DNA from: an uncultured Bacilli bacterium
GTDB lineage: Bacteria > Bacillota_I > Bacilli_A > RF39 > UBA660
Assembly: GCA_944355355.1 (NCBI GenBank)
Contig: CALVQE010000001.1
Span: forward strand, 3,175-67,174
Reading direction: 5' to 3'
DNA: 64,000 nucleotides
Shown here piece after piece: positions 949 through 60,709 of this stretch. A program made the translations under genes and the position numbers. How positions within the stretch are numbered: position 1 is the stretch's first letter; each line of letters opens with the position of its first letter. The notes beneath the pieces were generated by a model, which did no database searches, had not been told where the DNA came from, and saw nothing but the letters and a program-made list of their open reading frames with translations.

Positions 949-2077
949 GCATCATTTTCTCAAGATTATGAGCTTGCCTAATAGTTTTGTTAGTACTATC
1001 AGCAAAACTCAAAATTTTTCCATTTTTTAAAATTGCATAACAATCAGGACGCATTAATTCGTTATTAATTAAATACGTATTATGGGAAGTTAATATAGAT
1101 TGAAATTCTGTTTTATTATTTATATACTTTAAAATATAAGTAGATAATTCATAATGATAAAAAGCATCAAATTCGTCTAAAAAAACAAAAGAAATGTTAT
1201 CAGTTCTATTCATCCAATAAAAGAATAACCATAAAGAAAGTGTACCTGTTGATGCAACCACATCAAACCTCGCAGTATAATTTTTATATTTTACGCCAAT
1301 AATCTTACGACCGCCTTCACTAATTTCACACAATTTATAATTCTGTCCACAATCCTTTAAAAATTGTTCAAATTTAGATAATAATCGATTATTAATAACA
1401 AAATCATTCATGTCTTCCCTATTAGCCATTACACCCATAAATTCATTAGATCTAAGACTTCTAAACCATAGCATATTATTAACAAACTCCATCAGTAATT
1501 TAACAGCACTATTCTCATTCCAAAATAATGTATTATTATAAATATACTTTAAAACTGACATATCTTTATTACTTCTTTTAGAAATGTCTATTGTTTGAGC
1601 TTCTCCAATATTATTATCAAATTTATTCGTTTCATAATTATATTTAAACAAAATGTTATTATTCTCAATTAACTCTTCAGACAATAATTTTTCCCGAGGA
1701 TCTTTTTTATATGAATAAATTATTTTTTTATCATTTAATAAAAATTCATATTCAAATTCTACAATATTATCAACAAAATTACCATTTACATAATATGCAT
1801 AAATAATATTATCCACACCATAATTATCTGTTAAATGTGTAGTTATATCCATAATTGCAGCGCCTAAATTACTCTTACCAGAATTATTTGGACCATAAAT
1901 CAGCATTTTGTTAATCAATCCATTCTTAATTAATTCTTGATTAAACGCATAGTCTCTTTTTTTTGAAAAATCTAAAGTCAACTTTTCTCTAAAATTTTTA
2001 AAATTTTTAACACTAAATTTCTTCAACATAAGATTCACTCCCAAACTAATTATACCTCCTTTGTATCTTTTTTTCAA
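926..2077 (-). CDS. AAA_15/AAA_21-type (ABC/SMC-like) ATPase, defence-associated
   Basis: Walker A GPNNSGKSNLG and Walker B-like FVFLDEFDAFYH. The SVKNFKNF opening is typical of this family. The likely true start is MLKKFSVKNF at 2029. Confidence 0.75.
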   Translation of the reverse strand: MKKRYKGGIISLGVNLMLKKFSVKNFKNFREKLTLDFSKKRDYAFNQELIKNGLINKMLIYGPNNSGKSNLGAAIMDITTHLTDNYGVDNIIYAYYVNGNFVDNIVEFEYEFLLNDKKIIYSYKKDPREKLLSEELIENNNILFKYNYETNKFDNNIGEAQTIDISKRSNKDMSVLKYIYNNTLFWNENSAVKLLMEFVNNMLWFRSLRSNEFMGVMANREDMNDFVINNRLLSKFEQFLKDCGQNYKLCEISEGGRKIIGVKYKNYTARFDVVASTGTLSLWLFFYWMNRTDNISFVFLDEFDAFYHYELSTYILKYINNKTEFQSILTSHNTYLINNELMRPDCYAILKNGKILSFADSTNKTIRQAHNLEKMMLGGEFEV

Positions 2078-42185: not shown

Positions 42186-42851
42186 ATGAGTTACTTCAAT
42201 AATAATCTTCCATATATCAGAAAACAAAAAGGGATCTCTCAAAAAGAATTAGCTAAAAAAATTGGCGTTGATCAATCTACAATCTCACTATGGGAAAAAG
42301 GAATGGATACGACAGTTGAAAATGTAATAAAAGTAGCGGAAGCACTCGATGTTCCCGTTCCCGACTTCATAGGCTCAGATTTAAGATTTGATAATGCCGA
42401 ATTAATCGACTTAAATGTAGAGAGAGTGAAAGTGCCAGTTTTAGGAGTGATAAAAGCAGGTACACCAATTGAAGCACAAGAAGATATTTTAGATTATGTA
42501 GAAATACCAAAAGAATGGATAAGGCAAAGTAAAAAATATTATGGTTTAAAAATTAGTGGTAATAGCATGAGCCCGAAGTATATGCCAAATGATACCGTTA
42601 TTTTTGAAGAAACAAATGATTTTCAATATGCCAATAATAAAGATTGCTGCGTGATGGTAAATGGTGACGATGCAACTTTCAAGGTTCTTAAATTAAAAGA
42701 AGACGGTATTAGATTAATACCACTAAATATTGAAAATGATGATGGATATCTTCCTACGTCATATACTAAAGAAGAAATAATAAACTTGCCAGTCAAAGTA
42801 ATTGGTATCGCTAGAGTAAAAATTTCCAGCATAAGTTATATGGAAGAATAA
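42186..42851 (+). CDS. CI/LexA-like repressor (XRE HTH plus S24 peptidase)
   Basis: N-terminal HTH (KGISQKELAKKIGVDQSTISLWE) and a C-terminal S24 domain with the GNSMSP serine motif and a downstream Lys. Confidence 0.85.
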   Translation: MSYFNNNLPYIRKQKGISQKELAKKIGVDQSTISLWEKGMDTTVENVIKVAEALDVPVPDFIGSDLRFDNAELIDLNVERVKVPVLGVIKAGTPIEAQEDILDYVEIPKEWIRQSKKYYGLKISGNSMSPKYMPNDTVIFEETNDFQYANNKDCCVMVNGDDATFKVLKLKEDGIRLIPLNIENDDGYLPTSYTKEEIINLPVKVIGIARVKISSISYMEE

Positions 42852-43008: not shown

Positions 43009-44087
43009 ATGAAATACAATCTACATTTAGGTGGTGATGTCCTATAAAACTACCTAATAAATATGGAATAATCGAAAAATTATCAGGAAATAGAAGAAAC
43101 CCTTATAGAGTCAGAAAAACTATCGGATGGGATGAAAACGGAGTACAAAAGAGGCAAACTATTGGATATTTTGAAACAAGACAGCAAGCCTTACAAGCAT
43201 TAGCATTATTTAATGAAAATCCTTATAACATTGATGCTAAAAAAATAACCGTCAAGGAACTTCATCAAAAATGGCAAGATGAAAAATATCCTAAAATTTC
43301 TAAAAAAACACATCAAGTATACAATATGTGTTGGAATTATTGTCAAGATATAAAAGATATACCGTTTGTCGATGTTAGACTAACTCATTTGCAAGCAATA
43401 GTTGATAGCATGGGTGATAAATGGAGTGCAAAAAAAGCATTTAAAATTATGTGGCATCAAATGTACGATTATGCAATTAAACATGATATAGATGTTAAAA
43501 AATATTCAGAATACATCGACATAGGCAAAAAAACGACCAAATTAGTACGAATACCATTTGAGGAAGAAGAAATAGACAAGTTATGGGAAAATATCGACAG
43601 AATGGATTTTATTGATACTATATTGATACTTATTTACACAGGCTTAAGAATAAGCGAATTATTAGACATTAAAATTGAAAATGTTCATATTGATAAAGAA
43701 TATATGATCGGTGGATTAAAAACAGAAGCAGGAATAGATAGAGTAATACCACTTCATAAAAGAATAATACCACTTATACAAAGATACTATGATAAAGCTG
43801 TTAAAAACGGATGCGAATACTTAATAGTCAATTCTTTAGGAAAACAAATGAAATACTCTAATTATAGAAGAGAAAAATGGGATATTATGATGGAACAATT
43901 AGAATTTTCAAAAGACCACAAGCCCCATGATACAAGACATACTTTTGCAACTCGTATGGATAGAACACCTGCAAATAAATTATGTATAAAAAGAATAATG
44001 GGACACGCTAGTACAGACATTACTGATAAGGTTTATACCCATAAAGATATAAAAGAACTTATAGAAGCTGTAAATTATCTGAAATAA
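43009..44087 (+). CDS. int: phage tyrosine integrase with apparent 5' frameshift or unconventional start
   Basis: Catalytic domain with GLRISELL, HDTRHTFAT and GHASTDITDKVYTH. The arm-binding-type N-terminus KLPNKYGIIEKLSGNRRNPYRVRKTIGWDENG is open from 43038 but has no ATG/GTG/TTG. The well-placed ATG at 43009 is in another frame and stops at 43045-43047. Confidence 0.8.
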
Positions 44088-50552: not shown

Positions 50553-51104
50553 CTAACGAGTCCATCCCTCTCTTAAAACATCATAACTGATCGTGTTGCG
50601 ACCAACATAGGTCAAAGCATCTTGCTCACTAGGCATTAATAAATCCAAATCATTTCCTAAAACACCACGATCTAACACAATCGCAATAATAGGTTCATTA
50701 GACAATTTAGACAATTTAAAGCGCACAATTGAACCACAAGGCAAATTAGAACCAGAAGCAACTATTCGTACATTACCATAAATATCATCCGTATAAGTAG
50801 AAGTTCCATCTAAAACATTATAATTTGGCATACAAGATAACTTTCCAGTACATGCCTCACAATCTGCTCCATAGCCAGTTAAATCACCCGTATAAGAATC
50901 TTTAGCACTATACAAATCATTTCTAATATCTTCCTCTAACTTCATAGCCATCGTCGTTAAATTAATAACACGATTGCTTGCATCACTAGAAACAGTAGCC
51001 ATTTCTTTATTTGTACTAAGATTAGCTAAAAAAACTACAAAAACTAAAATTCCTAACTGTAAAACCACTTTTATTCTTCTTGTGATTTTATTCATACATA
51101 TCAC
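50553..51104 (-). CDS. secreted 3D-domain (RlpA/MltA-like) protein, YabE-position
   Basis: Signal/TM segment. The C-terminal AIVLDRGVLGNDLDLLM is typical of the 3D domain. Confidence 0.55.
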   Translation of the reverse strand: MICMNKITRRIKVVLQLGILVFVVFLANLSTNKEMATVSSDASNRVINLTTMAMKLEEDIRNDLYSAKDSYTGDLTGYGADCEACTGKLSCMPNYNVLDGTSTYTDDIYGNVRIVASGSNLPCGSIVRFKLSKLSNEPIIAIVLDRGVLGNDLDLLMPSEQDALTYVGRNTISYDVLREGWTR

Positions 51105-51153: not shown

Positions 51154-51468
51154 CTAATCTTCTTTTAAATCCTCGATTTTTTTATCAGAAGCATTATCCA
51201 AGCTACGAACGAGCTCATTTAATTTGGCTTTAAATTCCTTTTCTTCATCATCAACAAACCCCATATAATAAATTTTATCAATTTGATCATGATTAAACAA
51301 ACACGTTTGATCACTACTTAAATATCCTTCTGGATAAACACAACCATTATAATCATAAATAACATCATTCTTATTGCTATCCACTGAACAAAATCCCGTA
51401 ATCATCACTCTTTTACTTCCCCCTTTTAATAAAACAACCGTCCCAATTGGCAAATACTTTTCTTGCAT
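51154..51468 (-). CDS. DUF4176 family protein (T7SSb-associated)
   Basis: MQEKYLPIGTVVLLKGGSKRVMITGF...YDYNGCVYPEG matches my recall of the DUF4176 consensus. Confidence 0.7.
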   Translation of the reverse strand: MQEKYLPIGTVVLLKGGSKRVMITGFCSVDSNKNDVIYDYNGCVYPEGYLSSDQTCLFNHDQIDKIYYMGFVDDEEKEFKAKLNELVRSLDNASDKKIEDLKED

Positions 51469-51472
51469 TCTT

Positions 51473-52099
51473 TCACCCTCTATTCCTCTCTTTTTCTTCC
51501 CCTTTGAATATATTTGGAATCATATTATAAGTAAGATACGAAGTAGCTATCTTCAACTCCTTTTGATTAGCATCTTCTAACACCTGAAAAACTTGATCAC
51601 GAATTTTTCGAATAGAATTTAATTGTTCCAACGTTTGACACTCCGTTTGCTTAAATGCAAACTCAAACACCAAACTTTGTGACAAAGCCTTTGTTTCATC
51701 ACAAGGAATTCCAAAAAAACTAACATCCCCTTTTTCAAAAACAACCTTTTTAAAAGTTCTCTCATAAAAAGATACGGGTATACTCTCGCGAGTAAACAAA
51801 TCCATAATGTCGTCAATATCCAAATTTTCAACATGAAAATTATTTCTTAAATAAATATAATCACTTCCTAAAGCAGAAAACTTATGATAAAAATTACTCC
51901 CTAAATCATCCACTTTAGGGATAAAAACCCCCTGCTTTTCAATAAAAGAATCAATCTGTCCAAAAGGAATAAAGCGACTCAAAAAACGTTCAAAACCCTG
52001 TTTATACAAAGCCATACACTTTAAAAAGTCAGACTCATTAGCAAATTTCTCTTGAACTAACTGCATATCAAAACTTAACGGATAAAAACGATACCCCAT
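51473..52099 (-). CDS. hypothetical protein, candidate immunity protein for the upstream toxin
   Basis: 208-aa cytoplasmic ORF directly downstream of the giant toxin-like gene. The call is positional only. Confidence 0.35.
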   Translation of the reverse strand: MGYRFYPLSFDMQLVQEKFANESDFLKCMALYKQGFERFLSRFIPFGQIDSFIEKQGVFIPKVDDLGSNFYHKFSALGSDYIYLRNNFHVENLDIDDIMDLFTRESIPVSFYERTFKKVVFEKGDVSFFGIPCDETKALSQSLVFEFAFKQTECQTLEQLNSIRKIRDQVFQVLEDANQKELKIATSYLTYNMIPNIFKGEEKERNRG

Positions 52100-52150
52100 A
52101 AAAACCTCACCTTCATATAACCTAAGAATATCATAAATTTACAAAAACAT

Positions 52151-55100
52151 CTAGTCCGTCTCATAAAACATCAGCGAAAGAATCCTAGCATAAGAATACT
52201 TATCTTTATATTCTTGAAGACTATCGAAAAGAAATTCATATTTTTCACTCCAAGAAGAAACAATAAGTTCCAAATTTTCACTAATATCTGTAATTAACAT
52301 AGCATGTCCACCAACATCTTTAGAGATTTGGCCATCAACAGTCGAACCACTTAAAGCCTTATCTTTATTATGAGTCACATTAGAATCAATCAAGATCTGT
52401 TTCAAATCAAAATGACTACTCCATAAAATCGAAAAATAATTAGAAAAATCTAAAATTGTACTCAAAGTTTCCATTTTACTATTAACAGAATTGTTAAGAT
52501 ACTGAGCAATTATATTTCTTTCTTCAAAATAATCAATTATTTTGGCTTGAAAATCAACAATAGCAATTCCAGAAGAAGTCTCATTGTCTAAAATATCATT
52601 TATATGATCATACTCCTTAGAGTAATAATTCAAAAACATATCAAAGGCAATAGCTTCTAAATTATAAACTTTTTGTTCACCGTCCATATAAAACAAATCA
52701 AAACCTATTTTCTTTTTAAAAGAAATGCCTCCATCATTTTTATTTTCCATATAAACTGCAAAGGCATTTGCCACAGCCATCCAACAACAACCACCAGATG
52801 CATAAAAATCAGCTAAATTAACCTTTTGTAAATCCGTTGCCTCAGGAAAATACTTTTCGATCAAGGAATTAAGTAACTGAGCCTTTTGCTGTTCAATCAT
52901 AGGCAAAGCCCTTTGACCAACATAATCCTCAACCAACTGAGCCACATCACTTTGATTTCCACCATATTTTGATCCAAAAACATTTGTAATATGATCAATA
53001 CTCGGAAAAATATCTTTAATCATATCTAAAGAGACTTCTTCAACTCGAACATTAGAAATTCCAACAAGCTGATTTTTTTCAATATATTGATCAACATTCA
53101 AAATATTTCTTCCTTTTTTATTGATAGTTGCTAAATAACGAGCATAAGTTTTTCCATCAATATCATATTTTAAAAGATATACACCAGGATGATCAACTTC
53201 TTGACTATAAGAAGGTAAAGGTATAACTTGTTTAATTTGAATGTTTGAAACATCTTTAAATTTATAATCAGCCATAGAACTTAAATCTAAATCTCTAGCT
53301 AAATTATAATAAATCATACGATATTCTTGACCATCTAGCAAAAGAACGATTTCATTTAATCCTTTGTTCACTGTTCCATCAAACACAGTTAAATTTGTTT
53401 TTCGTTCATTCAAAGTAACAGAAAGAATTTTTAAGTTATCTTTTAAAAGAGCTGTAGAGTATTGAGGAAAACGCAATATAATATAATACAAATCGATTTT
53501 GTCATTCATTACTAAAGTTGTAACAGTTTCTATCTTGCCATCTATTTCCAATGTAATATTATAGTAACCACTTGGAACAGAAACAACTCTATTAAGATTC
53601 GGAGCAAGACAATTTGAAAATTTTTCAGACAGGACAATCTCAGTCTGTTTGGTAACCTGATTAATTTGCTGCCAATATTGTTTAATTTTAGAATCCATGC
53701 CTAAATTAAGAGGAATGATATTATTTATCAACCCTTTATACTGCATATTTTGTAACAAAACATCCTCAGTATAAAACTTTTCTAAAACACTTTTTAACAA
53801 TCTCTCATACTGTGTAAAATCTAAATTGCTTTCTAAAAAGTTATCAACAGAACTATAACTAACTGAATTCATTAAATCGTAAAAATCATCTACACTCAAA
53901 CGAATTATTTTGTCAACCATAGTTTCATTAACAAGCCAAGTAGAAACAGTTCTAAAATCAAAAGAGCTTATAATCTGTTTAAATTCTTCTAAATTCATAT
54001 TTAAAACCACATCGCGCACATTCTCATTATTAAATATACAATTAAAATCTTCACCAGACAATTGACTATAAAACTCAGAGGACGTAAGCAACACATCTTT
54101 AATAGCAGTATCATCCAAACTAAACAATTTTTGAAGAAAAGTATCTTGAGTTAACCACGAAGATAACCCCTTTTCTGAAAACGCTTTAATAATTTTCTGA
54201 AAATCTTGTACATCTAAATCCATAATAGATTGTTTTACGATTTCATCACTAAATAAGCGATCAAAGTCTTCAAAAGACAATTTTGATAAAGGATCCGCAA
54301 AAATTTGAGGAGCTTGTTTTAATTTACAATAAAGTTCACTTACTTTTTTAGTACCAATAAGCTCACTCAAGATAATTGGATCGTATGTTAAATGTAAAAT
54401 ATAGTTGATATCTGTAAATTGATCAAGTTTTCCACTATCACGTACTGCTCGCGCAAAAGCCCTTTTGTATTCCTCAATAGTAGAAAATCCATCTGGAACA
54501 TTTTTATCAGTCAAACTACGAATATAATACATATATTCATTAAAATCACCCAAGTTATCAGGCACATCATTCAAATCAATATTTGGCAATGTTGTTTTTG
54601 CCTCAAAAGAAGCCACACTACTTTCAATTAGATTTTTTAGTTGTATCAATCGTTGATAAGCCTCGCTTAACTCAGACGGAACTTGAACTGTTTTTCCAGC
54701 ATCATGCTGTTCTAACAACCGCGGTAATCGACTATCTGAATCAATTAGTTGATTAAACTCTTCTATTAGTGCACTATGAGACTTATCTGTTACTAAATCT
54801 TCAACATCTGTCAATTTTTGTTGAATTTTGCTTAATAAATTTTCAAAAGGTAAATGATCAGCTGTAAACAATTCAGATAAATTGCCCTGTGAAGAATTAA
54901 CATAACCTCTAACATATTCAGGTTTCAAATAAAGTTGACCGTCCACCTCATGAACAAGTGCATCTAGATTATTCAAAAGCTTTTTAGGAATCTGAACAAT
55001 CACGGCTCCTCCTTCTCCATGAGCTTTATAAGTTGAAGTCGCACACAAATTTCGCAAAAAGAACAAAAAATTAAACTTTGAAGGATCAGTTTCCAAAACA

Positions 55101-58100
55101 ATATTATCCGTCAAATTTCCCGTAACACCAGTTTCAGTATTACCAGACAAAATAACGCCATTTCTTAAAGCTGCATCCCCCATTATATTACGACCATTAC
55201 TATCAAATAAAGTCTCACCTAAAGCATGGAAACCTATAACCGTATCCTCATCAAAATACCACTGTTCTAGTTGAGTTCCCAATTTTTCAGAAACAAACCC
55301 CGTTTCCAAATACTCTTCAGCAAAAGGCCGAATTGCCTCATCAATATCCGATATATCCATAGTATACCTTTTTGTAGTCGAAAGATTAAGAGAATCTATA
55401 GATGGTAAATAAAGCTTTTGTAAAAAATTTAATTTAGAAAACACTTCTTCAGAAACATTTATACCTTTAGAAACCAACTCATCGACCAATCTTTGAGCCG
55501 CCTTAACATATTCTTGAGGCGAAAATCCTTTTCCAAAAAGATCAACATTTTGATCAATATTTCCTAATTTATTAAATGCTTGATCAACATTATTAATAAG
55601 CTTTTCCAAAACATCAACAGAATATGCCTTGCCATCAACCATAATTGTATCAATTCCAAGCAATTCTTGATAAGAAGGAGAAAGAGAATCCAACGTATTC
55701 AAGTCAGATAAATTTCCTTCATTCGAATTAACATACCCCATAACATATTCTGGCTTTAAAATAGCTTGACCATCCTTATAATAAACAAGCGCATCCATAT
55801 TTCCTTCAAGTTCTTTTGGAATACATATAATAGCCGCAGAACCTTCACCATCCGCCTTATAATAAGACGAAGTAAACAAATCATTTAAAAATAAGGCAAA
55901 CGAATATTTCTTATTTTTATTTGTATAAAAGCGAATATTATCACTAAGATCACCTGTAAATCTTGTCTCGCTATTTCCCGTCAAAATAAGACCATTTTGC
56001 AAAATCTTATCTCCTCTAATATTTCTTCCATTACTATCCACTACTAAACTTCCCAAATTATGTACGCCAACAATATAATTATCATCGAAAAAAACTTTTT
56101 CTAACTGCTTACCTAAAGTAGATGATAAACTTCCTCTTGTCATAACCTCTTGAGCAAAATCCTTCAAATTTCCCTTCAACCCAAAAGTATTAAAATGATA
56201 TAAATCATTATCACGATGAAACGCCTTAGTTTTCAATTGTCCAAAGAAATTTACAACATCATCACGCATGCTCACCAAAGATTCAAAAATAGATATTACA
56301 TTGGATTTAAGAGTCTCTCCAACTTGAACACTATGCATCTTATCAACAAGACCTGACACATAACTAGAAACACCATCGAACGAATTTTTAATTTGCTCCA
56401 TAAACACATTTTGCACTTCTCCTGTAGTAGCCATCGTTCCTGGATGTAGTATACTAAACTCAAGTTTTCGTAATCGTAAATAACTATCCATCGATTCCTG
56501 CGGTATATTAACTGTTTCTCCATTATTAGCTTTCCTGATAAGTTCAGCTAAACGACCATCGGAATCTAAAAGATTATTATACTCGTCCACCAAAGCTTTA
56601 ATCGGTTCATTTATTTTTCCTTCAATAGCTTTATTCAGTAAATCAAAAATACGTTTTCCCTCTAATTGTTCATAAGTTGGACCAAGTTGATCAATAGATG
56701 AAACTTTTTCTTGATAATCGTGAATAACTGATGTAATACGCCCTCCTAAATCATTAAGATTTGATGAAATAACATTTTTAGCTCCAACAGCAACTTTAGC
56801 AGCTGTCATTATTACATCACCATTATGAATAATGTCCAATAAATTTTCAACATTACGAATAATATTGCCCCCTTCACGAGCCATGGCAACTAAATTCTTT
56901 TCTAAAGTAACAATTCGCCTTCCTAAAAAATCCGTAGAAATATCAGTATGATAGCTATTATAAGTTTCTTCTGGAATTTCTTTATAAACTAATTTACCAT
57001 TGTCGTTCATCAATCCCAAATAAACAAGACTTGCTTTGGCAGAATCAAAAACATAATCTCCCATTGCCGCTACAGCATGATCAGCCAAAGACCGATAACG
57101 AAAATGATCCAAATCAGCTTCATCAATATCAAACTTAACTGCTACAGTCTTTTCTAAAAAAGAAGGAATATTCACAGCAACATTTTCAAAATTAGGAAAT
57201 CCAGCAAAAAAGAATGACTTTTTACTTCCATAACTACTAAGAACATTAGAAGCTTTAACATAACCAGACTCTAAAATTTTCTGAGCATTTTCTAAACTTG
57301 TAATATGATAAATACCATCTTCTAATATAGTTTTACTCACTTCTACATTATTTTTAACAGGAGTATAAACTAACTTAGATAACACTCCAAAAGGACTATA
57401 AAACATGCCAATAAACGTCTTAGGAAGACTAATTCTCGAATGCAATATTTCCTTAACATTTGTATTTACATCCTCAAAAAAAGCATCAAAAGTACTACCA
57501 ATACTATCCTCTGGCACAACATCTACTTGCAACAAATTAGCCACAGTTTCTTTTGTAGTATCAAGCAAAGTCGTTACTTGCTCAAACTCATTAACTTTAG
57601 AATCAATTACAGAATCTACTGTATCTAAAACTACATCTTTCACAGAATTTTGAACATCAGATCTAAAATTCATATAATTATCAAAACCAGAGCCAGTTAT
57701 ATCAGCAACATTAATAAATACATTTTGAATACCATTTACTACTTTTCCTCCAGTACTAAGCGTACTATTCCATATCCTCGTTCGAAAATCACTTATTTGA
57801 TTATTTACAGAAGATATAGTATCAAGAGCTTTAACTGCATTTGTCTTAGTATTTTGCCACATCTTCCCCTTAAACTCACTCAATCCTTCATTTAAAGAAA
57901 CAACGCCAGAAGCTATCTTGGCTCCAGTTTCACCTAAAGAATTCAATACATCTGTACCAAAGTTTTTTAATTTATCTTTAAAAGATATCTCCTCTACAAC
58001 CTCAATAGGTGTATAAATATTCTCTGCATGACCGTTATTTTCGACATTCGTAAGATAATCCAAAACAACTTGCTCTTGACTAGCTTCATCACAATTATTT

Positions 58101-60709: not shown

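Follow-up and report, generated by a model that had tools for sequence, protein, structure and literature searches.

[quoted passage not shown] The protein, hereafter the giant, appears to combine a conserved delivery trunk with exchangeable enzyme cassettes. It is a previously undescribed toxin-like protein, and its N-terminal domain is new. Export by the T7SS, which we infer together with the enzyme activities and the target, is the best reading of the locus, since the genes for EssC, a YukD-like protein, two WXG100-like proteins, a 133-residue protein and a DUF4176 protein are conserved neighbours. The positions of all features are collected in Table 1.

Table 1. Organization of the giant gene and its locus; positions are those of the window, and genes are listed in the direction of transcription.
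Feature	Position	Strand	Basis or remark
essC, FtsK/SpoIIIE-type T7SS ATPase, C-terminal ~650 codons	62041..64000	minus	NCBIfam TIGR03928 T7_EssCb_Firm E 5.9e-100; Pfam FtsK_SpoIIIE
YukD/EsaB-like small ubiquitin-like protein, 83 aa	61797..62048	minus	Pfam YukD E 0.0017, under gathering cut-off
WXG100-like partner A, 100 aa	61420..61722	minus	Pfam WXG100 E 7e-8, 33 bits, over cut-off
WXG100-like partner B, 96 aa from ATG	61128..61418	minus	Pfam WXG100 E 6.6e-6, just under cut-off
Helical partner candidate, 133 aa	60725..61126	minus	always directly 5' of the giant
Giant ORF, 2852 aa, about 320 kDa	52151..60709	minus	8.56 kb, ATG start, no internal stop
N domain, aa 1-130, candidate T7SS targeting domain	60320..60709	minus	extreme N-terminus of 20/156 family proteins
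L, aa 131-320, Ser/Thr/Asn-rich variable linker	59750..60319	minus	composition; poor conservation, many indels
H, aa 321-620, conserved trunk region	58850..59749	minus	kept in all six close relatives; helical by eye only
G, aa 621-870, Gly/Ala/Ser-rich, moderately hydrophobic	58100..58849	minus	superfamily hallmark
V, aa 871-1104, variable spacer	57398..58099	minus	low conservation among relatives
Y cassette, aa 1105-1310, divergent HYD1-type ADP-ribosyltransferase-like	56780..57397	minus	H1135, K1164, F1167, D1210
X connector, copy 1, aa ~1330-1460, motif EYNxLLDSDxRL	56330..56722	minus	internal duplicate of aa 1980-2069
D1 cassette, aa 1500-1705, alpha/beta domain outside known families	55595..56212	minus	50% identical to D2; pLDDT about 90
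D2 cassette, aa 1785-1985, second D copy	54755..55357	minus	duplication match to D1
X' connector, copy 2, aa 1980-2069	54503..54772	minus	matches X copy 1
R, aa 2075-2350, ~73-aa tandem repeats	53660..54487	minus	helical by eye only
B, aa 2351-2559, beta-rich region	53033..53659	minus	G-x-Y..D-G-K motif thrice, at aa 2381, 2450 and 2509
C cassette, aa 2560-2852, papain-fold cysteine peptidase-like	52151..53032	minus	Q2586, C2641, H2802, S2819-W2820
Candidate immunity/inhibitor protein, 208 aa	51473..52099	minus	covaries with the C cassette
Strain-variable replacement block, giant 3' 2.7 kb + 208-aa gene	51469..54847	minus	blastn vs L003
Small DUF4176 protein, 104 aa, Ltc chaperone family	51154..51468	minus	Pfam DUF4176 E 1.5e-27, 95.9 bits vs cut-off 25

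The giant ORF is a real gene that recurs in several samples. As an earlier note on this DNA had described, a single frame is intact from start to stop, and a strong ribosome-binding site (AAGGAGGTG) lies 6 nt before the ATG. The exact 2852-residue protein is recorded on three independent contigs, the longest of 156 kb, and two other 2852-residue variants are found on three additional contigs. The earlier note had also raised the possibility of an assembly collapse. We found no direct DNA repeats of 30 nt or more within the ORF, which, with the identical protein on three contigs, answers this concern. The window giant resembles one relative (P0001) at its front and another (P0002) at its back, a pattern that a mis-join between strains could yield. 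Nevertheless, an assembly chimera or collapse is extremely improbable because the contigs carrying the exact sequence come from different sources, and the C-terminal part is merely 79-91% identical to that of P0002, pointing to a separate allele rather than a copy. The intact 8.5-kb frame and the ribosome-binding site make a decaying pseudogene extremely improbable, too. The protein had been described as several-fold larger than LXG toxins. This holds: those toxins are about 400-700 residues long and the giant is thus 4-6 times longer. It has ~1.7 times the length of the largest T7SSb substrate candidate that we found in the literature. Neither a signal peptide nor a classical transmembrane helix is seen in its hydropathy profile.

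Upstream of the giant, essC is cut by the end of the window and not interrupted, since its frame runs on without a stop; the encoded part is 99.8% identical to the 1515-residue EssC of a strain of the same species (L003). The YukD-like gene adjoins essC in all related loci. Partner A has the motif W-Q-G and, at the C-terminus, YQKLE (YxxxE); WxG is present in four of five loci and YxxxE in all five. Partner B, which also matches NCBIfam WXG100_ESAT6 (E 4e-8), contains W-S-G and a C-terminal YKKLE (YxxxE), both kept in all five loci. WxG and YxxxD/E-type motifs of small partners play a role in export (PMC10801868). The 133-residue protein gave no family match, merely coiled-coil noise. It is 63-84% conserved across all loci, and it remains with the giant at another chromosomal location, apart from essC (L002, L017). 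The earlier note was therefore right about essC and the YukD-like gene, but the small genes that follow are two of WXG100 type and one helical, not one and two. Downstream, it correctly placed a small gene, here the 208-residue one of unrecognised family, before the DUF4176 gene. The latter follows the giant in all close loci, and its product falls in the 'small' class of DUF4176 proteins (PMC12478183). Such proteins act as toxin-specific chaperones in the T7SSb. They bind amphipathic helices located in disordered regions of the toxins, and these regions have been proposed to be membrane-translocation domains (PMC12478183).

The gene order essC, yukD, WXG, WXG, 133 aa, giant, (immunity), DUF4176 was observed in L001-L007 and L011. 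The essC, YukD-like and WXG100-like genes lie directly 5' of the giant in the window and in L001, L003-L007 and L011. Thus, the T7SS effector context that had been claimed is conserved in every relative with enough flanking DNA. Distant genes with a G domain are also located downstream of essC and yukD (L014, L016, L018 and L022). DUF4176 was not detected beside these distant genes, so that G is not always linked with DUF4176. In L002 and L017, the block of partner, giant, immunity and DUF4176 genes is found away from essC, adjoining a VCA0040-like (PF04018) gene, and one MAG carries the block twice. This location is more easily understood for a portable effector module than for a part of the machine. 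The gene preceding the VCA0040-like gene in L017 was judged by eye to encode PNPase.

The machinery itself may be unusual. In L003, the products encoded in the 4 kb located 5' of essC are a 216-residue tandem WXG protein, TatD and MetRS; genes for large membrane proteins are lacking there. We saw no EssA, EssB or EsaA gene adjoining essC in the related loci; these genes could sit elsewhere in the genome. The canonical T7SSb nature of the machinery is therefore uncertain. Full-length EssC has no Pfam FHA domain. Non-canonical T7SS variants are known (PMC11217815).

The earlier note had seen in this locus the standard context of an LXG toxin. This does not hold: the partners are WXG100-like and not Lap proteins, and the DUF4176 gene is small and downstream. 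No LXG match was found in Pfam with the whole giant at E≤0.1 or with residues 1-135 at E≤10, nor with any of 18 N domains and 35 full-length superfamily members. Likewise, a search of the N-terminus for an LXG or WXG100 domain (Pfam, PDB profile, hhalign) gave no match. The Leu-x-Gly motif is absent from the N domain, the nearest sequence being V78-Q-G80-L-E. Twelve of the 18 family sequences have Gly80, and the position two residues ahead of it is occupied by V, I, C, S, T or A and in no case by Leu. None of the three small upstream genes matches the Lap families DUF3130, DUF3958, DUF5344 or DUF5082. An assignment of the giant as an LXG protein is ruled out by the lack of the LXG domain, of the Leu-x-Gly motif and of Lap genes. 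There are nonetheless resemblances with LXG toxins such as TelA, TelB, TelC and TelD: small helical partner genes directly precede the giant in a T7SS locus, it lacks a signal peptide, it is followed by a cognate gene, and DUF4176 belongs to the locus (PMC10801868, PMC12478183). In contrast to LXG toxins, it has three partners, WXG100-like and other, instead of two partners of the Lap1-4 families, and several cassettes where they have a single toxin domain. In characterised LXG loci the toxin gene is separated from the lap genes by a large DUF4176 gene (PMC12478183), whereas that of the giant is of the small class and located downstream.

The first ~870 residues of the giant, conserved among relatives, form a trunk composed of the N domain, the linker, H and G. 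Pfam, NCBIfam, PHROGs and PDB sequences contain nothing that matches this trunk. The ~200 N-terminal residues had been described as helical; a conserved domain is indeed present, but it extends over about 130 residues. It contains one proline, six glycines and no signal-peptide-like hydrophobic stretch. The domain matches nothing in Pfam (residues 1-135, E≤10) or by profile search of PDB sequences, and hhalign showed no similarity with its own WXG partners. The S/T/N-rich linker proposed previously is clearly visible (S+T+N 31-38% over residues 101-300). It bears two small hydrophobic patches, at about residues 140-168 and 245-272 (Kyte-Doolittle 1.39 at residue 147). The H region has no Pfam match, and its profile matches 105 of 156 family proteins. 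The G domain, with motifs GNMxP, GNAKNQALV and EGxEExxQEYVDAGL, is found in at least 775 cluster representatives at E≤1e-3 and in 462 at E≤1e-10, among 1.84 billion. No match to G was found in Pfam, PDB sequences, PHROGs, plasmids or phages. The Gly/Ala hydrophobic patch reported earlier lies in this domain, with the most hydrophobic 19-residue window at ~692-717 (Kyte-Doolittle 1.54). The maximum Kyte-Doolittle value for the G domain is 1.2-1.7, under that of typical transmembrane helices. Short relatives of ~645 residues (L016) contain H and G and no recognisable toxin cassette, suggesting that the trunk may have a function of its own.

Such short proteins are compatible with the giant being an envelope component of an atypical T7SS. 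G would then anchor in the membrane or wall of the producer and the variable part would form a stalk or adhesin, in an EsaA- or TsdI-like role. In each of the related lineages examined, a gene for a protein with H and G follows essC and yukD, EssA, EssB and EsaA genes are lacking near essC, and large envelope-spanning parts exist in other T7SS variants (PMC11217815). We consider an envelope role very unlikely, however, in view of the low hydrophobicity of G, the lack of a signal peptide and the occurrence of the block away from essC, twice in one MAG. Moreover, enzyme-like domains (ART-, papain- and transglutaminase-like, ADPrib_exo_Tox) and a covarying downstream gene would be unexpected in a structural part.

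Beyond the trunk and a variable spacer, the first cassette, Y, resembles an ADP-ribosyltransferase. Seven of ten family Y domains match Pfam Tox-ART-HYD1, none of them above threshold (best E 0.0024). With 14.2 bits, the copy in the window falls short of the gathering cut-off of 25, and the first third of the model alone aligns. Across the ten sequences, H1135 is found in at least 90% and K1164, F1167 and D1210 are invariant; these residues fit the published signature H,[RK],[FY],[DE] of the family (PMC3482391). The core of the AlphaFold2 (AF2) model of Y has pLDDT values above 90. Search for structural similarities with a Y-X-D1 model using Foldseek gave as top matches the ART-fold proteins pertussis toxin S1, cholera toxin A and KptA/Tpt1, with E≥0.08 and no assignment to Y or to D. 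Tox-ART-HYD1 (PF15633), a predicted ADP-ribosyltransferase toxin domain of the H-Y-[DE] clade, has been reported in T7SS-linked toxins of Firmicutes (PMC3482391), but the Imm-My6CBD immunity partner described there is not in the giant locus.

The rest of the middle part is built from repeated elements. D1 has no Pfam or PDB sequence match, and at least 12 more proteins of the family contain a D domain. The connector X is present twice in the window giant and from once to at least six times in relatives (at least six in P0009). The duplicated modules announced in the earlier note are thus confirmed, residues 1515-1702 matching 1793-1984 at 50% identity (E 2e-40) and residues 1372-1457 matching 1980-2069. 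A further pair, 2142-2249 and 2215-2307 (E 2e-11), lies within R, a region common to P0002, P0028, P0029 and P0034. B is conserved jointly with C in P0002, P0007 and P0028. Three beta-rich repeats had been proposed here. They do share a short G-x-Y-x-[IL]..D-G-[KQ] motif, but their pairwise similarity (z 0.8-2.1) does not go beyond that of shuffled sequences. Y and D have no neighbouring immunity gene, even where they are terminal (P0003, P0004), which is atypical for antibacterial polymorphic toxins.

The C-terminal cassette, C, probably adopts a papain-like fold, as the earlier note had suggested. Q2586, C2641, H2802 and S2819-W2820 are invariant in 12 sequences of two subtypes, in the canonical Cys-His order. 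The S-S-W motif resembles the N-S-W motif that papain carries. At the level of sequence, C matches no peptidase family. The AF2 model (pLDDT 83.6, pTM 0.87) was closest in Foldseek to staphopain (probability 0.97), IdeS, phytochelatin synthase and a papain-like toxin/immunity pair (9l5u); these matches are weak (E 7e-3 or worse, TM-scores 0.28-0.43). As in staphopain/staphostatin and 9l5u, invariant Cys and His residues go along with a cytoplasmic partner protein encoded directly downstream. Unlike clan CA peptidases, C has a large helical N-terminal extension, and its 208-residue partner lies outside known families.

This partner has no hydrophobic segment and is cytoplasmic by hydropathy. 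A 95% identical counterpart is found at the P0002 locus. Type-1 C cassettes are followed by the 208-residue gene and type-2 cassettes by a gene of 223 or 225 codons, the 223-residue product being 25% identical to the 208-residue protein. Where the giant has no C cassette, a gene of the 208-residue type is absent. In L008, a 523-residue protein composed of B and C only (P0007) is followed by a 203-residue homologue (37% identity, E 2e-36); the two genes form an orphan toxin/immunity cassette, with a putative immunity function. The covariation of C with its neighbour fits a toxin/immunity pair and a protease/inhibitor pair equally well.

Comparison with other strains and species reveals exchange of cassettes. 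The giant of L003 is 99.5% identical up to codon ~1954 and then continues with an unrelated 3' end. Identity ends at position 54848, just upstream of X', and returns exactly at the start codon of DUF4176, after a different downstream gene. The flanks of this block are 99.5% and 99.3% identical, with no similarity between them in blastn. The difference is a swap of a putative toxin/immunity cassette. In another species (L001), D1-D2 is exchanged for a transglutaminase-like cassette, with breakpoints inside X and at X', identity picking up again at position 54793, at X'. Among six close relatives, the part beyond the trunk is a mosaic of Y, X, D, transglutaminase-like, R, B and C regions that vary in presence and order. 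In the superfamily, ADPrib_exo_Tox occurs in 4 of 35 members, and metallophosphatase, HD and transglutaminase-like domains are also found. The giant resembles in this respect the multi-domain polymorphic toxins of Zhang et al. 2012, in which one polypeptide carries several enzymatic domains in variable combinations (PMC3482391). Of the features used there to define polymorphic toxins, exchanged C-termini, a covarying downstream gene and an orphan cassette are present, with a candidate immunity gene for the C cassette only. Between strains, the C-terminal cassette changes together with the gene that follows it, which bears out the polymorphic-toxin behaviour expected from the earlier reading.

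MARTX multi-effector toxins contain several effector domains and a peptidase domain in one chain, as the giant does. The giant could be a host-directed, self-processing toxin, in which C would cut at or near X inside a eukaryotic cell and free Y and D. The 208-residue protein would then be a cytoplasmic staphostatin-like inhibitor that keeps the giant from cleaving itself too early, rather than an immunity protein protecting against sister cells. In keeping with this, enzymatic cassettes are separated by the repeated, conserved X connector, and the best structural match of C, staphopain, is encoded with a cytoplasmic inhibitor. Multi-domain polymorphic toxins without immunity genes, the situation of Y and D, have been proposed to target eukaryotes (PMC3482391), and MAGs of relatives carry animal-associated sample names, such as 'Lapin'. 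We nevertheless regard a host-directed toxin as unlikely. P0003 and P0004 have X, Y and D without C, so that processing by C is no general requirement. Recombination breakpoints fall at X, so that its conservation is explained with no need for cleavage, and the joint replacement of C and its partner gene between strains is a classic sign of interbacterial antagonism. The giant also differs from MARTX toxins by its T7SS context, as opposed to T1SS or other routes. No RTX repeats, C80 autoprocessing domain or T1SS genes were matched in Pfam or NCBIfam. Finally, the family-specific X connector flanking the cassettes distinguishes the giant from MARTX and other multi-domain toxins.

A precedent among large T7SSb substrate candidates with three small partners is LrhA with LxpABC, a Listeria Rhs candidate linked to an EssC8 T7SSb (PMC10327511). 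Both loci have three small accessory genes, a downstream immunity candidate and an N-terminal targeting region, helical in LrhA and a candidate in the giant. LrhA has been argued to be too large for folded export (PMC10327511). The two proteins differ in architecture: in LrhA (1656 residues), Rhs repeats encase a single toxin (PMC10327511), whereas the giant has several exposed cassettes and no RHS_repeat or DUF6531 match.

For the preferred reading, a modular T7SS effector, a mechanism can be proposed. The ~130-residue N domain would pair with the two WXG100-like proteins and the 133-residue protein, forming a composite helical signal for EssC, as in LXG-Lap and EsaD-EsxBCD complexes. The small DUF4176 protein may act as a cytoplasmic chaperone shielding a hydrophobic or amphipathic segment, either the linker patches or the G domain. 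The giant, with its ~320 kDa, would be exported unfolded or extended. Outside the cell, the G domain may mediate membrane insertion or translocation of the cassettes into the target cell. The cassettes would act as enzymes: Y would be an ADP-ribosyltransferase of HYD1 type and C a papain-fold cysteine peptidase or related hydrolase, and D would have an unassigned activity. The 208-residue cytoplasmic protein would neutralise C in the producer.

A bolder and quite unlikely extension of this model is that the H and G regions form a new, self-sufficient membrane-translocation device for proteins exported by the T7SS, bringing series of ART-like and papain-like warheads into target cells, X serving both as recombination joint and as cleavage or release site. 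If so, a multi-effector logic akin to that of MARTX toxins would be run by a minimal T7SS, without EssA, EssB and EsaA, in uncultured Bacilli.

The giant is encoded by a single ORF, as the earlier note had claimed. It starts with an ATG and has zero internal stops over its 2852 codons; the predicted mass of the protein is ~320 kDa. A ribosome-binding site, AAGGAGGTG, is located 6 nt 5' of the ATG and 15 nt past the stop codon of the preceding gene. The identical protein is recorded on three contigs, the longest of 156 kb, and three other contigs carry two further 2852-aa variants. The ORF holds no direct DNA repeat of >=30 nt and the internal duplications of the protein are only 31-50% identical, so that repeat collapse is not a concern. 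An assembly artefact was rejected because the same protein occurs on three contigs and DNA repeats of at least 30 nt are lacking.

The order on the coding strand is essC, a YukD-like gene, two WXG100-like genes, a 133-aa helical gene, the giant, a 208-aa gene of no known family and a DUF4176 gene (Pfam E 1.5e-27). The housekeeping and sporulation genes ksgA, yabG, veg, spoVG, yabP and divIC, named from the Pfam families on record for the related loci L001 and L003, lie beyond, together with yabQ, recognized by eye. The essC gene is truncated by the window end, where its frame is still open; the ORF list apparently hinted at an interruption inside the window, which was rejected because the frame is open up to that end. 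The earlier note had rightly placed three small genes upstream of the giant but had counted one WXG100 gene and two other helical ones. The N-terminal domain that it described is present, with a conserved part of ~130 aa rather than 200, and its three beta-rich repeats do have a short motif in common, although their pairwise similarity is not significant. Apart from these small points, the remaining features that it listed were right.

Beyond rpsI/rplM, an opposite-strand ORF carries the tyrosine-recombinase-like motifs HDTRHTFAT and GHASTDITDKVYTH, recognized by eye. It sits in the sole 2-kb bin of the window with a positive GC skew. It may mark an island edge or be what is left of an integrase.

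Coordinates of the giant, its modules (in residues of the giant) and further features of the window and of related loci
Feature	Coordinates	Strand	Description
Giant ORF	60709 to 52151	-
N	aa 1-130		conserved N-terminal domain
L	aa 131-320		linker rich in S/T/N and in indels; holds two small hydrophobic patches
H	aa 321-620		conserved; helical by eye only
G	aa 621-870		Gly/Ala/Ser-rich domain
V	aa 871-1104		variable spacer
Y	aa 1105-1310		ART-like cassette
X	aa ~1330-1460		connector, copy 1
D1	aa 1500-1705		alpha/beta domain, no family
D2	aa 1785-1985		second copy of D
X'	aa 1980-2069		connector, copy 2
R	aa 2075-2350		repeats of ~73 aa; judged helical by eye only
B	aa 2351-2559		beta-rich
C	aa 2560-2852		papain-fold domain
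183-aa protein	50553..51104	-	N-terminal hydrophobic segment
253-aa ORF	43326..44087 and 42186..42851	+	recombinase-like
216-aa protein	L003:3382-4032		outside the window
Second-site block	L002:1870-11106
Second-site block	L017:8311-10519
P0028 block	L008:2233-10198
Short H+G protein	L016:9461-11398		also in L014 and L018
P0092 locus	L021:8001-16158

The earlier note had read the gene context of the giant as that of an LXG toxin. By all sequence tests run, the N domain is neither LXG nor WXG100. Its comparison using hhalign with the WXG100 partners of the locus itself and with the 133-aa protein gave probabilities of at most 3%, and a WXG100-like nature was rejected. Searches of Pfam, NCBIfam, PHROGs and PDB sequences with the whole giant and its segments returned nothing usable. 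Profile searches of PDB sequences with alignments of N, C, Y, D and G gave chance matches only, such as bromodomains for N and an FNIP-repeat protein for Y.

Across the family, the most hydrophobic 19-aa windows of the G domain reach Kyte-Doolittle values of only 1.2-1.7, which by the usual rule of thumb is under the level of a constitutive transmembrane helix. Such values are compatible with a segment that would be soluble with help and later insert into a membrane. As a candidate for G, we considered the Pre-toxin TG domain (PF14449); it was rejected because Pfam was silent even at E <= 10.

The core of Y is modeled by AF2 with pLDDT >90. Pfam Tox-ART-HYD1 is matched by seven of the ten family Y copies, always below threshold, and no other family recurs. 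Among the ten sequences, K1164, F1167 and D1210 are invariant and H1135 is found in at least 90%; these residues appear to fit the published ART-type signature H,[RK],[FY],[DE] (PMC3482391). The top PDB matches of the Y-X-D1 model are pertussis toxin S1, cholera toxin A and KptA/Tpt1 (E 0.08 or worse), SPN NADase and mosquitocidal toxin stand lower in the list, and a PARP catalytic domain and a Tpt1 are found among viral models. These structural matches consistently suggest an ART fold, with weak E-values and the matching domain (Y or D) not given. The D domain is modeled confidently (pLDDT ~90) and no family was found for it in Pfam or PDB sequences. Homology of Y and D, which share a 'G-x-H ... 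IL..G' motif, was rejected (hhalign probability 3%). In the C domain, Q2586, C2641, H2802 and S2819-W2820 are invariant in both subtypes. The best fold matches of its model (pLDDT 83.6, pTM 0.87) are all papain-fold: staphopain (probability 0.97), IdeS, phytochelatin synthase and CtaG, with low TM-scores of 0.28-0.43. A 'papain-like cysteine protease toxin/immunity pair' is also among the matches. We therefore assign C to the papain fold with moderate confidence; its enzyme activity is a prediction.

Comparison with related loci reveals an exchange of cassettes. The window is 99.5% identical to L003, from another strain of the same species, from essC to position 54848 (codon ~1954, the end of D2). 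The next 3.4 kb, encoding X', R, B, C and the 208-aa protein, stand opposite 2.2 kb of unrelated sequence. Identity returns, at 99.3%, exactly where DUF4176 begins, with its start codon at position 51468. In L003, the allele P0001 (2449 aa) has the second papain-fold subtype at its end and a 223-aa gene after it. L001, from a related species (84-89% identity), has a transglutaminase-like module in place of the D1-D2 block, with one breakpoint within X (~aa 1422) and the other where X' begins (~aa 1972). Thus, X marks the joints of cassette exchange. Directly after DUF4176, all close loci encode a 183-aa protein with a weak NCBIfam match to the stationary-phase survival protein SpsC (E 0.0012). 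Because the identity with L003 is continuous through its gene, this protein is probably housekeeping and outside the effector block.

The downstream gene tracks the C cassette. The 208-aa gene is 95% identical to its counterpart at the locus of P0002, which has the same C subtype, and 37% identical to the gene beside the orphan B+C cassette P0007. Its identity with the 223-aa gene of the second subtype is 25% (E 2e-5), against 70% between the two 223-aa genes. The 208-aa protein lacks hydrophobic segments; a role in immunity would place the action of the C cassette in the cytoplasm. Alternatively, the giant may be a host-directed, self-processing multi-effector toxin, with C and the 208-aa protein forming a protease/inhibitor pair like staphopain/staphostatin. 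We keep this explanation alive, as an immunity candidate is missing for Y and D even where they are the terminal domains: at the loci of P0003 and P0004, giants ending in D or Y, no gene is found at the 208-aa position. However, the same two proteins carry X, Y and D without C, so that C-mediated processing is not general.

Only five relatives of the whole giant turned up when 5.8 billion proteins were searched by a word index, all on metagenome contigs. Species-representative MAGs carrying the family are labeled 'uncultured Bacilli bacterium'. Close relatives align throughout the first ~870 residues (44-100% identity), the trunk, and differ beyond it in content and length (1612 to 2852 aa). 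A trunk profile, run exhaustively against 1.84 billion cluster representatives, matched 775 proteins at E <= 1e-3, 462 at E <= 1e-10 and 149 at E <= 1e-30; the best-scoring 150 of the 775 are mostly 600-2200 aa long. Among 156 family proteins searched, 152 have the G domain, 105 the H region and 20 the N domain, always at the extreme N-terminus. None of 35 full-length superfamily members has LXG or any other known N-terminal domain, and their C-terminal parts include ADPrib_exo_Tox (n=4), metallophosphatase, HD and transglutaminase-like domains. The superfamily is thus toxin-carrying, with a conserved part that is in no domain library. This part has no match in PDB sequences, PHROGs, or plasmid or phage collections. 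A phage- or plasmid-borne family, for example tape-measure-like, was rejected, since PHROGs gave nothing and neither did tblastn with H+G against 50,697 phage and 72,556 plasmid records.

Several relatives differ in their make-up. P0009 (2849 aa) is nearly as long as the giant and has an N domain ~50% identical, two D and at least six X copies. Its size and different make-up indicate that very large multi-cassette members arose more than once in the family. At L008, the G-domain giant P0028 (1668 aa), which has R, B and C modules in common with the window protein, is followed by a 233-aa gene, the orphan cassette P0007 (523 aa) and a 203-aa homologue of the 208-aa gene; the block lies upstream of a second type of essC (37% identity). 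At L021, the G-domain protein P0092 (2223 aa) does not adjoin essC. A 301-aa gene follows, and after it comes a gene with a weak match to a chagasin-type cysteine-protease inhibitor (Inhibitor_I42), a hint that other family members may have an immunity pair of the protease/inhibitor kind. Finally, Bacilli MAGs from rabbit gut ('Lapin'; L014, L016 and L018) encode ~640-680-aa proteins with little beyond the H+G trunk. Their genes come after essC, yukD and two genes of no assigned family. Housekeeping genes follow, and neither a toxin cassette nor an immunity gene could be recognised at these loci. The H+G trunk may have a function of its own.

The order essC, yukD, WXG, WXG, 133 aa, giant, (immunity), DUF4176 is found in all close loci, and distant G-domain proteins likewise follow essC and yukD (L014, L016, L018 and L022). 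In all or nearly all loci, both WXG100-like proteins retain the WxG and C-terminal YxxxE motifs. The acidic residue of such a small-partner motif is needed for export in characterised systems, where helical bundles of partner and toxin form the targeting signal (PMC10801868). Unlike those of LXG toxins, the partners of the giant do not belong to the Lap families. The block made of partners, giant, immunity gene and DUF4176 also occurs without essC at a second chromosomal site (L002 and L017), where it adjoins a VCA0040-like (PF04018) membrane-protein gene; in L017, the preceding gene is PNPase by eye. Both sites are present in one MAG (E0_RM bin3), so that one genome can hold two giants. This argues for an effector module and against a machine component. 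A role of the giant as a surface or machine component, which the trunk-only relatives such as that of L016 favor, is less likely. Because these cassette-less relatives, and Y and D without an immunity candidate, do not fit a purely antibacterial reading, both this explanation and the host-directed one stay alive.

Upstream of essC, L003 encodes a 216-aa protein with two WXG motifs (W-T-G and W-V-G). It looks like a tandem WXG100 fusion in the usual place of the EsxA gene. Genes for EssA, EssB or EsaA were not found next to essC in L003, nor was any similar gene between the 216-aa gene and TatD/MetRS, and Pfam finds no FHA domain in the full-length EssC (1515 aa). The system may be a minimal or non-canonical T7SS variant; few-component variants are documented (PMC11217815).

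We propose that the giant is a T7SS toxin. EssC would recognise the N domain together with the three small proteins as an export signal. DUF4176 proteins are toxin-specific chaperones that fold an amphipathic helix in the disordered middle region of LXG toxins, a proposed membrane-translocation domain, and small ones were suggested to bind membrane-inserting helices (PMC12478183). Here, DUF4176 would hold a hydrophobic segment soluble in the producer. The giant would be exported unfolded or extended, as argued for LrhA (PMC10327511). G would then insert into the target membrane and help the cassettes across, Y, D and C would act as enzymes, and the 208-aa protein would shield the producer from C. 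The giant would work like LXG or LrhA-type T7SS polymorphic toxins, yet it fails the defining LXG tests.

In the giant, a new N-terminal domain comes together with a trunk that is widespread and unannotated, and with several cassettes linked through a family-specific connector. Giants with multiple toxin domains are known among polymorphic toxins in general (PMC3482391); in the literature searched, we saw no description of one from a type VII system of Bacillota. The family is T7SS-linked and invisible to current LXG-based searches, and its G domain stands at the head of no fewer than 775 protein clusters from public metagenomes, clustered at 50% identity. With clean breakpoints at its X connectors and at the first codon of DUF4176, the giant offers a tractable case of recombination rebuilding multi-cassette toxins. 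The work on DUF4176 chaperones raised the question of how T7SS toxins cross the target membrane (PMC12478183); for this missing step, G is a concrete candidate. If exported, the giant would raise the largest size known for type VII export in Bacillota from the 1656 aa of LrhA, which is no more than a candidate too (PMC10327511), to 2852 aa, and would be a natural test case of whether large T7SS substrates pass in the unfolded state.
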